Source: Phycisphaeraceae bacterium (GTDB taxonomy: Bacteria; Planctomycetota; Phycisphaerae; Phycisphaerales; Phycisphaeraceae). From it: a stretch of 64,000 bases of DNA. The translations under genes were made by a program, and so were the position numbers. Position 1 is the first letter of the stretch, and the number at the start of each line of letters is the position of its first letter. The notes under the pieces were generated by a model that made no database searches, had not been told where the DNA came from, and saw only the letters and a list, made by a program, of their open reading frames with translations. Shown piece by piece: positions 23,495 to 24,789 of this stretch. Location: contig JBKAGS010000002.1 of NCBI GenBank assembly GCA_046290505.1, positions 41,790-105,789 on the forward strand. Direction: 5' to 3'.

Positions 23495-24115
23495 CTATGC
23501 CGCCGCCTCCTCAGCCTGGGGGAACGTCAATAATTGGTCGCGGTAGTACTCGTATTGCTTGCGACGAGCCTTGATTTCGGCGGGCAAGCCGTCGGTAAGG
23601 TCGTTCACTAGTGCATCAAATTTGTCGAGTATGCCGACGATGCGGTCCTGCTCTGCCCGTGATTTCTTTGGGTCGTCGGGGTAGGGGATGGGGATGCTAA
23701 TCTTGGCCAATTTCTTTGCTGACACGTCGATGACCTTTGCGCCGGTTGCCTGCTTTCTCTTCTGTGCGAAGAAGTGTGGGGTCTGCAGGCAGTAGGATAT
23801 GTACGTTGGGTTCTGCTGATGCTTGAATACGGTTGCGTGACCGCCGGTCACAATTTGGGCATCTCCCAGCCATGCGACCCCTTTGCAAACACCCTCAATA
23901 TCTTCACTTGTATTCGTGATGATCAGGTCGCCCGGGTCAACCTTAGCGAGCTTCTCAGCTTTTTGGGGCGGGATGAATGAGATCGTTTCATTCGCCCATG
24001 TCTTATAGTGGGTGTAGATTTGCCCGTAATGGATACAGCCGACCCCCGACTCGGCGAAGTCAGACTTTGGCATCCCATTGCCGCGAACAAATGTGCCGAT
24101 CTCATCCAAGGTCAT
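23495..24115 (-). CDS. hsdS: Type I R-M specificity subunit, downstream half (TRD2 + distal conserved helix)
   Basis: 206 aa. TRD-like N-terminus MTLDEIGTFVRGNGMPKSDF. Conserved-region C-terminus RAEQDRIVGILDKFDALVNDL...IKARRKQYEYYRDQLLTF. The ATG at 24115 lies 5 nt after the upstream half's stop. Confidence 0.8.
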   Translation of the reverse strand: MTLDEIGTFVRGNGMPKSDFAESGVGCIHYGQIYTHYKTWANETISFIPPQKAEKLAKVDPGDLIITNTSEDIEGVCKGVAWLGDAQIVTGGHATVFKHQQNPTYISYCLQTPHFFAQKRKQATGAKVIDVSAKKLAKISIPIPYPDDPKKSRAEQDRIVGILDKFDALVNDLTDGLPAEIKARRKQYEYYRDQLLTFPQAEEAAA

Positions 24116-24120
24116 CCACC

Positions 24121-24789
24121 TTACAATTGCTTGCTTGCTTGCTTGCTTGCTTGCTTGCTTGCTTGCTTGCTTGCTTCGCTCGCGTTATCAAACGCGAGTA
24201 GTGCGTCGCGGTAGTACTGGTACTGCCGGCGACGCGCTTCCAGCTCCGCTTCCAGCTCCGCTTCCAGCTCCGCTTCCAGCGTAGTGAAAGTGTCGAGAAT
24301 CCGAACTATCTCTGTCTGAATGGAAAGAGATTTTTCTTGATCATCTGGGCAGGGTACTGGAATCTTCTTGTGGCAGTAGTTACTGATCCATTGTCGCTTG
24401 TGATCGCCTTCTATCAATTCGCTGGGTAGCGTGTTCAGCCAGTAGTAAATGTATTTAATAAGAACTCTAGAATCGTCTGCCGAGGTGATCATTTTCATCG
24501 CAGACGACTTCGCCTTAAAATCAAAATCCACCCACTTATTAGCAGTCGTGAAGTCGTCAAAAATAATCACGGGGTTCTTCGAAGCTTTATAAATGCCGTG
24601 CGTCTCGTTCGTGTAGCCAAGAATGAAAGTCTTGCCTGCAGTTAAAACCGGTGTCTCCCATTCGTCGCTATAGTTTTTAGTTTTGACCAGATACTTGGTT
24701 GGCTGTTCATATGCTGTTATCTCCCCAAGGGGCAGCCACCCGACTTCAGACCCATCGAGCAACTTATCTATAAACGGATTATTTCTCAT
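24121..24789 (-). CDS. hsdS: Type I R-M specificity subunit, upstream half (TRD1 + central conserved helix), ending in the tetranucleotide-repeat-encoded (ASKQ)4 tail
   Basis: 222 aa. The ATG overlaps the hsdM stop (ATGA). Conserved helix [45 protein letters not shown], then ...[20 protein letters not shown] and TAA at 24121..24123. Confidence 0.8.
24127..24176. repeat. Perfect tetranucleotide microsatellite (TTGC)12.5, read as GCAA on the coding strand, at the junction of the two hsdS halves
   Basis: Direct count: 50 nt made of 12 full TTGC units plus tt. Confidence 0.95.
24237..24280. repeat. 12-bp tandem repeat (cttccagctccg x 3.7) encoding (LEAE)n in the central conserved helix of hsdS
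   Basis: Direct count: units at 24237, 24249 and 24261, plus a partial unit from 24273. Confidence 0.95.

Follow-up and report, generated by a model that had tools for sequence, protein, structure and literature searches.

A probable (GCAA)n phase-variable switch in the hsdS gene of a prophage-borne type IC restriction-modification and PrrC operon from a planctomycete

Where phase-variable specificity genes of type I systems for restriction-modification (R-M) were discussed, it was mostly with regard to host-adapted pathogens and their epigenetic 'phasevarions'. A survey of REBASE found simple sequence repeats (SSRs) in the specificity gene hsdS always between the target recognition domains (TRDs) (Atack et al., 2020, FASEB J 34:1038; PMC7383803). 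Among them, GCAA[n] occurs with 3–16 units in Pseudomonas aeruginosa and with 7–29 units in Haemophilus (Glaesserella) parasuis, and was predicted to switch hsdS between a full-length and a truncated form of differing specificities (PMC7383803). In the present study a stretch of 64,000 nt from a metagenome-assembled genome (MAG) of the Phycisphaeraceae (Planctomycetota), contig JBKAGS010000002.1 of assembly GCA_046290505.1, positions 41,790 to 105,789, hereafter called the window, was analysed with regard to an hsdS gene that is divided by such a GCAA tract into two half-genes and belongs to a prophage-borne type IC R-M plus PrrC operon. We consider it probable that the tract acts as a phase-variable switch in this gene.

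Consequences of changing repeat length or of halving the specificity subunit are known from a few systems. In NgoAV a change in the length of a polyG tract was shown experimentally to convert the palindromic GCAN8TGC into the asymmetric GCAN7STCA (PMC9577141). Half subunits homodimerise and read palindromes, GAA N7 TTC in the case of EcoR124I delta50, TCA N8 TGA in EcoDXXI deltaC and GAAY N5 RTTC in EcoDXXI deltaN, and co-expression of EcoDXXI deltaC with deltaN restores the parental asymmetric site (PMC3874165). The spacer within the target is set by the number of TAEL units, EcoR124I reading N6 and EcoR124II N7, and the Escherichia coli prr locus represents a type IC system with embedded prrC (PMC3874165). 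The EcoDXXI and EcoR124 truncations as well as NgoAV had already been named, correctly, as precedents in a first-pass annotation of the window.

The tract lies at 24127..24176, where Tandem Repeats Finder reported TTGC x12.5 with 100% matches; on the coding (minus) strand it is a perfect (GCAA)12 (24174..24127) plus a partial AA, as the first-pass annotation had described it together with its translation (ASKQ)4. Read across on the coding strand, the sequence is GAA(GCAA)12TTGTAAGGTGGATGACC. Since a run of GCGG x3 is the sole other tetranucleotide run of at least three units in the window, chance is no explanation for the GCAA tract. Upstream of the junction, the N-half of hsdS (222 aa, 24121..24789, minus strand) encodes TRD1, the central conserved helix and an (ASKQ)4L end, and downstream the C-half (206 aa, 23495..24115, minus strand) encodes TRD2 and the distal conserved helix and terminates in ...KARRKQYEYYRDQLLTFPQAEEAAA before its stop codon, a longer C-terminal stretch of the same open reading frame (ORF) being ...GLPAEIKARRKQYEYYRDQLLTFPQAEEAAA. 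Each half gave one Pfam Methylase_S match, with PADLOC Specificity_I values of 1.9e-64 for the N-half and 4.9e-76 for the C-half, in accordance with the earlier description of two abutting and complete half-hsdS ORFs.

Between the two ORFs there is nothing but the TAA (24123..24121), GGTGG and the ATG (24115..24113). The junction motif TAAGGTGGATGACCTTGGATGA (24102..24123, minus strand) holds a Shine-Dalgarno (SD)-like AAGGTGG at 24122..24116 and an ATGA, in which the last two bases of the ATG open a TGA (24114..24112) that shares its frame with the TAA, followed by an alternative TTG start (24109..24107) and a stop in the third frame, TGA (24104..24102). The junction is of the form ATAAGGTGG..TTGGGTGA. 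Promoter-like sites numbered eight, as opposed to 4.6 ± 2.2 in shuffled sequences, and terminator-like sites 14, as opposed to 12.2 ± 3.8, none of either kind at the split junction, and an Rfam scan of 18.5–28 kb returned no match.

For a frame test, alleles with n = 6 to 19 units were simulated in silico. A single fused ORF resulted at n = 7, 10, 13, 16 and 19, coding for a two-TRD HsdS of 432 aa at n = 13 and of 428 aa at n = 10. Alleles with n = 0 mod 3 end with ...ASKQL at the TAA three bases past the tract, and those with n = 2 mod 3 end with ...NCKVDDLG at the TGA 22 nt past it. A gain of one unit or a loss of two joins the half-genes of the window, in agreement with frame arithmetic previously done by hand, by which +1 or -2 units fuse them without an intervening stop. 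The simulated alleles, the reading of the sequence and Tandem Repeats Finder together mark (GCAA)12 as the hypermutable element of the gene. Among solved structures the best match of the fused translation is the EcoR124 HsdS 7bst_A (E=8e-119), with an alignment over the whole length and a TRD1 that is 79.5% identical over 166 aa. In this alignment the ASKQ stretch falls into a gap between the central helix and TRD2, which places the tract exactly at the helix/TRD2 domain boundary, and the SSR lies between the two TRD coding regions. A BLAST search of the hsdS region against annotated plasmids and phages gave only matches to EcoR124-like TRD1 at 72–74% identity, none of them across the junction.

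A strong argument for a switch comes from other hsdS loci with the same junction. A search with the fused translation mainly retrieved ordinary type IC HsdS proteins of 400–415 aa, and in one of them (P0081) ASKQASKQA stands at the same junction; a protein search centred on the junction found six truncated products that end in ASKQ repeats in differing frames. Nucleotide sequences were scanned with the pattern (GCAA)>=4, N0-12, GGTGG, N2-6, CCTTGG, which matched in 13 species-representative genomes, 30 metagenome contigs and two IMG/VR viral contigs. Two of these matches (L022, L038) were dropped as they are not hsdS junctions, and three further contigs (L047, L056, L048) were found independently of the pattern. 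Altogether, a GCAA tract occupies this position in about 45 hsdS loci besides that of the window, three of them on IMG/VR viral contigs, and the number of units ranges from 3 to 22 (4 to 22 in the pattern scan). Carriers among the genomes are mostly MAGs of Betaproteobacteria (Burkholderiaceae, Ferrigenium, Comamonas, Limnohabitans, Sulfuricella, Thiobacillus), with further ones in Lysobacterales, Chloroflexota and Desulfuromonadales. PrrC follows the GCAA-hsdS in L015, L023, L047/L056 and L048. EcoR124-like systems were also seen on further IMG/VR contigs, in some cases together with PrrC (L054, L055, L058) and in others without it.

All three frames are present in this family: the 43 hsdS junctions comprise 19 fused ones, 15 that terminate at the TAA and nine that terminate at the TGA. 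That split alleles might favour the TAA frame was considered and dropped, the raw counts of 15 and nine becoming about 11 and nine after dereplication. Near-identity clusters were built on 800-nt flanks at >=97% identity, and even loci whose flanks are >=98.5% identical differ in unit number and frame. Thus, n = 12 (split) in L010 and L035 stands against n = 7 (fused) in L036, n = 9 in L006, L018 and L019 against n = 8 in L037, and n = 10 in L016, L025, L042 and L043 against n = 7 in L028. The TRD2 ORF is intact (177–209 aa) in 23 of the 24 split relatives with complete sequence. Tract variation among near-identical loci, the occurrence of all frames and the intact halves are together what a comparison should reveal if the tract is a hypermutable contingency element, so that the slipped-strand contingency locus proposed in the first-pass annotation is strongly supported by relatives of the gene, and the comparison of related assemblies that it had suggested revealed differing unit numbers at the level of the family. 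A repeat of another kind was seen in 606-aa HsdS proteins of Catenibacterium mitsuokai and metagenomes (P0088, P0093, P0095), which apparently possess three TRDs and have TDRQTDRQ after the conserved helix; this implies an (ACAG)n-type tract at a TRD junction, an arrangement similar to that of the hsdS genes which Atack et al. call 'extended'.

Besides the tract, nucleotides that follow it are conserved. In 24 of 30 dereplicated loci the codons before a conserved Trp are ATA AGG. Both are rare codons in GC-rich genomes. Together they yield the off-frame TAA and the SD-like AAGGTGG, and where they vary that frame still has a stop, which is TAG in ATAGGG and ATAGGA and otherwise the TGA within ATGA. 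A conserved Glu is preceded in all 30 loci by a codon ending in T (GGT in 26, GCT, GTT, GAT and AAT in one each), by which a TGA is kept in the other off-frame despite the change of amino acid. As a control, six distinct type IC hsdS genes devoid of GCAA were taken from IMG/VR viral contigs; T occupies this position in one of the six and G or A in five (Fisher probability ~2e-5 for the contrast with the family, shared ancestry ignored). The nucleotide-level conservation of the off-frame stops and of ATA AGG was lacking in such GCAA-less genes. The N-terminus of TRD1 had been considered as an internal codon control and was rejected, as the motif is not shared there. Both off-frames end within a few nt of the ATG (24115) or the TTG (24109), the possible starts of the C-half. 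The conservation of both off-frame stops at the nucleotide level hints that both halves are made, and may be read as selection for prompt termination beside a re-initiation site, which would let the C-half be translated and keep the coupled prrC and hsdR expressed.

A second repeat was detected in the central helix, where the 12-bp unit GAGCTGGAAGCG occurs x3.8 at 24235..24280 (minus strand; Tandem Repeats Finder, 100% matches) and encodes (EAEL)3. It is the counterpart of the TAEL spacer-length repeat of EcoR124I/II and EcoDXXI. In the family the number of EAEL units is dimorphic, with two in 23 loci and three in 20, and it varies inside near-identical clusters as well (L016/L028 vs L025/L042/L043; L010/L035 vs L036). 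Judged by this pattern of variation, the EAEL repeat is a second, in-frame length switch in the same hsdS gene.

Slipped-strand mispairing in replication would alter n, and the split is probably reversible. With n = 1 mod 3 one two-TRD HsdS would be made that recognises an asymmetric bipartite site, predicted as GAA-N7-(TRD2 half-site) because TRD1 is ~80% identical to the TRD1 of EcoR124 and three EAEL units are present as in EcoR124II. With any other n, the present 12 included, translation would end just past the tract and produce a half subunit of TRD1 plus helix, which could homodimerise and read a palindromic site, predicted as GAA-N8-TTC by analogy with EcoDXXI deltaC and EcoR124I delta50. 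At n = 12 the stop lies 5 nt before an ATG that is preceded by the SD-like motif, and the 206-aa C-half may be translated by coupling. If made, it would bring a second palindromic specificity, and heterodimers of both halves (A/B) would keep the original asymmetric GAA-N7-(TRD2 site), the only site that an allele of n = 13 or n = 10 would give. Lysogen populations would in this way become heterogeneous in methylation and restriction specificity. The sequences show the anatomy of the locus, the logic of its frames, tract variation in all three frames throughout the family, intact halves and conserved off-frame stops, from which, together with the described systems, we infer switching in the window's own lineage, activity of the halves, expression of the C-half and the target motifs.

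It is possible, if rather doubtful, that the split is a designed two-subunit state with both halves made by re-initiation, and not a truncation that leaves TRD1 only. In that case one tract would switch the enzyme from a single asymmetric specificity to a mixture of as many as three (A-A, B-B, A-B) and back, and translational coupling to prrC and hsdR would be preserved. Combined with the variable EAEL repeat, which would lengthen or shorten the spacer by one base, such a two-subunit state could provide up to eight target sites from one phage-borne gene.

Several points weigh against a switch of this kind and have to be set beside the evidence for it. At the window locus itself PrrC and HsdR are singletons at 90% identity, and the unit count of n = 12 comes from a MAG consensus. 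The sole other assembly of the same sequence (L049; Logan, SRR22269038) begins inside the GCAA tract (1..30), a start that is uninformative on heterogeneity because a de Bruijn assembly with k=31 breaks there. After dereplication the frames are distributed at about 17/11/9, which does not depart from uniform (chi-square ~2.8). Most relatives were collected by a pattern in which CCTTGG is fixed, so that its conservation is subject to ascertainment. The junction encodes the conserved peptide IRW.TLGEIG, and its conservation is partly at the protein level. As regards the C-half, there is little spacing between the SD-like motif and the ATG that it abuts, and in NgoAV the downstream half alone is reportedly inactive (PMC9577141).

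Via the 90% cluster of HsdM two more distant relatives of the window's own lineage were reached, one fused with n = 4 and one split with n = 3; in the protein collection the 90% clusters of PrrC, HsdR and Mrr have a single member each. In the fused one (L047, the same element as the IMG/VR contig L056) Mrr_cat, hsdM, a 392-aa hsdS with (GCAA)4, prrC and hsdR are accompanied by a serine recombinase and DUF2924, and TRD1 shares 88% identity with that of the window, while TRD2 is a different one. The split one (L048) contains hsdM (HsdM 89% identical), a 205-aa half, a 200-aa half and prrC, and at its junction (2736..2760) it is split in the window's frame with an identical TTGTAAGGTGGATGACC and only three GCAA units; the third-frame TGA is missing, with GGC GAC in place of GGT GAG. 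This relative may be a locked two-gene form. If the same held for the window, hsdS would consist of fixed functional halves that assemble post-translationally, and GCAA would be a linker relic no longer switching meaningfully. Three units in the same frame and with the same junction, too few for frequent slippage, fit this explanation, as do the conserved off-frame stops beside the start and the wild-type enzyme rebuilt from co-expressed EcoDXXI halves. However, in the absence of selection for mutability twelve perfect and uninterrupted units should not last, unit number and frame vary among near-identical relatives, and fused is the commonest state in the family, all of which makes a stable two-gene hsdS unlikely.

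Quite unlikely, too, is a miscount in the assembly or consensus, in which case the dominant allele would in truth be an in-frame one of 13 or 10 units and the split would have arisen as an artefact when a perfect repeat of 48 nt was assembled from short metagenomic reads. The source is indeed a MAG contig, the Logan assembly breaks inside the tract, and short-read assembly often collapses SSR tracts (Atack et al., PMC7383803). Yet 48 nt are well inside normal read length, and among independently assembled relatives each of the two split frames occurs often, so that a split allele is not implausible; the switch interpretation would stand even with a wrong count. Decay of the gene would be a third explanation, by which a frameshift inactivated hsdS on recently transferred cargo of low GC content and the system is heading to loss. 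It could draw on the foreign composition of the cassette (50–52% GC vs 70% in the host) and on the fact that the half proteins are absent as annotated products from the protein collection, in which HsdM, PrrC and HsdR are present. But both halves as well as hsdM, prrC and hsdR are full length with strong hidden Markov model scores, the only lesion is the frame change at the repeat, restored by +1 or -2 units, and TRD2 is intact in 23/24 split relatives. A decaying pseudogene is therefore very unlikely, and a phase-variable switch is retained as the preferred reading.

The gene in question is part of an operon in the order hsdM, split hsdS, prrC, hsdR, with all genes on the minus strand and start/stop-coupled throughout. 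The first gene, hsdM (24786..26342), encodes a type I methyltransferase forming N6-methyladenine (518 aa; Pfam N6_Mtase 5.7e-119, HsdM_N; TIGR00497 3.1e-195), and its stop overlaps the start of hsdS (ATGA). One nt past the hsdS stop (TAG) begins prrC (22324..23493), whose product of 389 aa is an anticodon-nuclease homologue (PADLOC PrrC 3.8e-143, AAA_13) and which overlaps hsdR by 8 nt. The type IC hsdR (19230..22331) encodes 1033 aa with HSDR_N, SWI2_SNF2, T1R_D3-like and EcoR124_C (8.8e-72) domains (TIGR00348 1e-206); HsdM and HsdR clear the TIGR equivalog/subfamily models by a wide margin. The EcoR124_C domain of HsdR and the closeness of HsdS to the EcoR124 HsdS 7bst_A speak for type IC identity. 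PrrC possesses a P-loop GSGKT at residue 27 and the residues R313/E317/H349 with spacings of 4 and 32. The nuclease triad of EcoPrrC, R320/E324/H356, has the same spacings. The gene order of a prr locus, homology to PrrC, the P-loop and the nuclease triad are all present. Directly upstream of hsdM lies a gene for an Mrr_cat nuclease (26385..27440, minus strand; Pfam; PADLOC candidate system PDC-S02, 3.9e-143), and the same order is found in L047 (6900..7955) and L056 (3326..4378), so that Mrr-hsdM-hsdS-prrC-hsdR seems to be the mobile unit. The locus is an EcoR124/EcoprrI-like type IC R-M plus PrrC operon that forms the cargo of a prophage, at whose end it lies.

This prophage of ~44.4 kb (19023..63467) was delimited by Pfam, PHROGs, direct repeats and GC steps and bears the cassette at its left end, next to the candidate attachment (att) site. 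Its genes at 26–63 kb include a tape measure protein and a capsid-protease fusion as well as a portal of the lambda type and a terminase of the gpA type, and Pfam and PHROGs further identified a ParB-methylase, a primase-polymerase, a helicase, a PDDEXK nuclease and a large serine recombinase with DUF2924. Structural and integrase genes in one block with a composition unlike that of the host identify it as a temperate phage. In-register exact direct repeats 44,431 nt apart, a 14-nt one (CGTAAGTCGTTGTC, 19023-19036 / 63454-63467) and an 11-nt one (AGAAAAAACCG, 19083-19093 / 63514-63524), are candidate att sites in an alignment that is only partly similar around them; they would set the cassette just within the left prophage end. 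The other end abuts a tRNA gene, tRNA-Asn (63550..63623). GC content is 66–73% up to ~18 kb, 50–52% over the R-M cassette and 60–65% at 26–64 kb, and the prophage, the PrrC-like nuclease and the GC-rich surroundings given in the first-pass annotation were all corroborated. The methylase of the prophage, a ParB_N-N6_N4 DNA methylase fusion (48601..49986), is a second, orphan-looking methyltransferase that could modify phage DNA. Just outside the candidate left att site, a single DUF6398 plus PRiA4_ORF3-like protein (17786..18811) is encoded in DNA of intermediate GC content (54–62%). The flank of the host, a Phycisphaeraceae MAG, includes LamG/PEP-CTERM and dockerin proteins, namely very large dockerin type I proteins and LamG/PEP-CTERM paralogues at 5653..11322, 10950..15758 and 1291..2394, the nearest named relatives of the flank proteins being Phycisphaeraceae MAGs and Pirellulimonas nuda.

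As GCAA[n] between hsdS TRDs was already reported (PMC7383803), the novelty of the switch implied in the first-pass annotation is not supported, and the window locus is a new example of a mechanism published in 2020. The same annotation had met with no description of the combination with PrrC on a prophage. A literature search found no paper on PrrC with a phase-variable hsdS, nor on a prophage-borne SSR-hsdS. In sequence data the combination is no one-off, with PrrC in L015, L023, L047/L056 and L048 and with GCAA-hsdS on viral contigs. What is modestly new here is the planctomycete prophage host, the wide extent of the GCAA family among environmental bacteria and viral contigs, the repeated association with PrrC and carriage on (pro)phages, the conserved off-frame stops and the variable EAEL repeat. 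The GCAA switch is widespread, with relatives mainly in environmental Betaproteobacteria and also in viral contigs and a planctomycete prophage, and this spread points to diversification of defence via mobile elements rather than to regulation of virulence. PrrC is a nuclease that the R-M complex presumably keeps latent, its tRNA-Lys cleavage being unmasked on inhibition of the complex, and its recurrent linkage to the switch raises the question whether the architecture of the S subunit affects the guard function. The basic picture in the literature is left unchanged by the locus.

Among the closest described systems are the GCAA-hsdS genes of P. aeruginosa and H. parasuis. They share with the window the repeat unit, its position between TRD1 and TRD2 and the predicted outcome, and their tract length varies among otherwise identical genes, as in the family of the window; this likeness was drawn from the published description. 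Unlike them, the hsdS of the window resides in an environmental planctomycete MAG, on a prophage, and is followed by prrC. In addition, the model of Atack et al. foresees only the TRD1 half, whereas the window has a downstream half with a conserved adjacent stop and start. The type IC system NgoAV (Neisseria gonorrhoeae FA1090; hsdM, hsdS1, hsdS2, hsdR) likewise has its hsdS divided by an SSR that stands where the first half ends, and a change in tract length fuses the two halves. It differs in its polyG tract, in its place in the chromosomal core instead of prophage cargo and in the reported inactivity of hsdS2 alone, and no prrC is mentioned for it (PMC9577141), whereas the window has prrC.

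EcoR124I/II and EcoDXXI resemble the window in the four-aa helix repeat that sets the spacer and, in the case of EcoR124, in a TRD1 that is ~80% identical. Their truncations are laboratory constructs or the work of Tn5, whereas the hsdS of the window is split by a built-in repeat, and they have TAEL and no GCAA tract, as opposed to EAEL and a GCAA tract in the window. The EcoprrI-PrrC locus of E. coli CT196 (prrA-prrB-prrC-prrD) is alike in having prrC between hsdS and hsdR, and the PrrC of the window matches the PrrC model strongly and shows the same R/E/H spacing. Its hsdS, however, is single and uninterrupted, contains no SSR and is not described as phase variable, whereas that of the window is split by GCAA.

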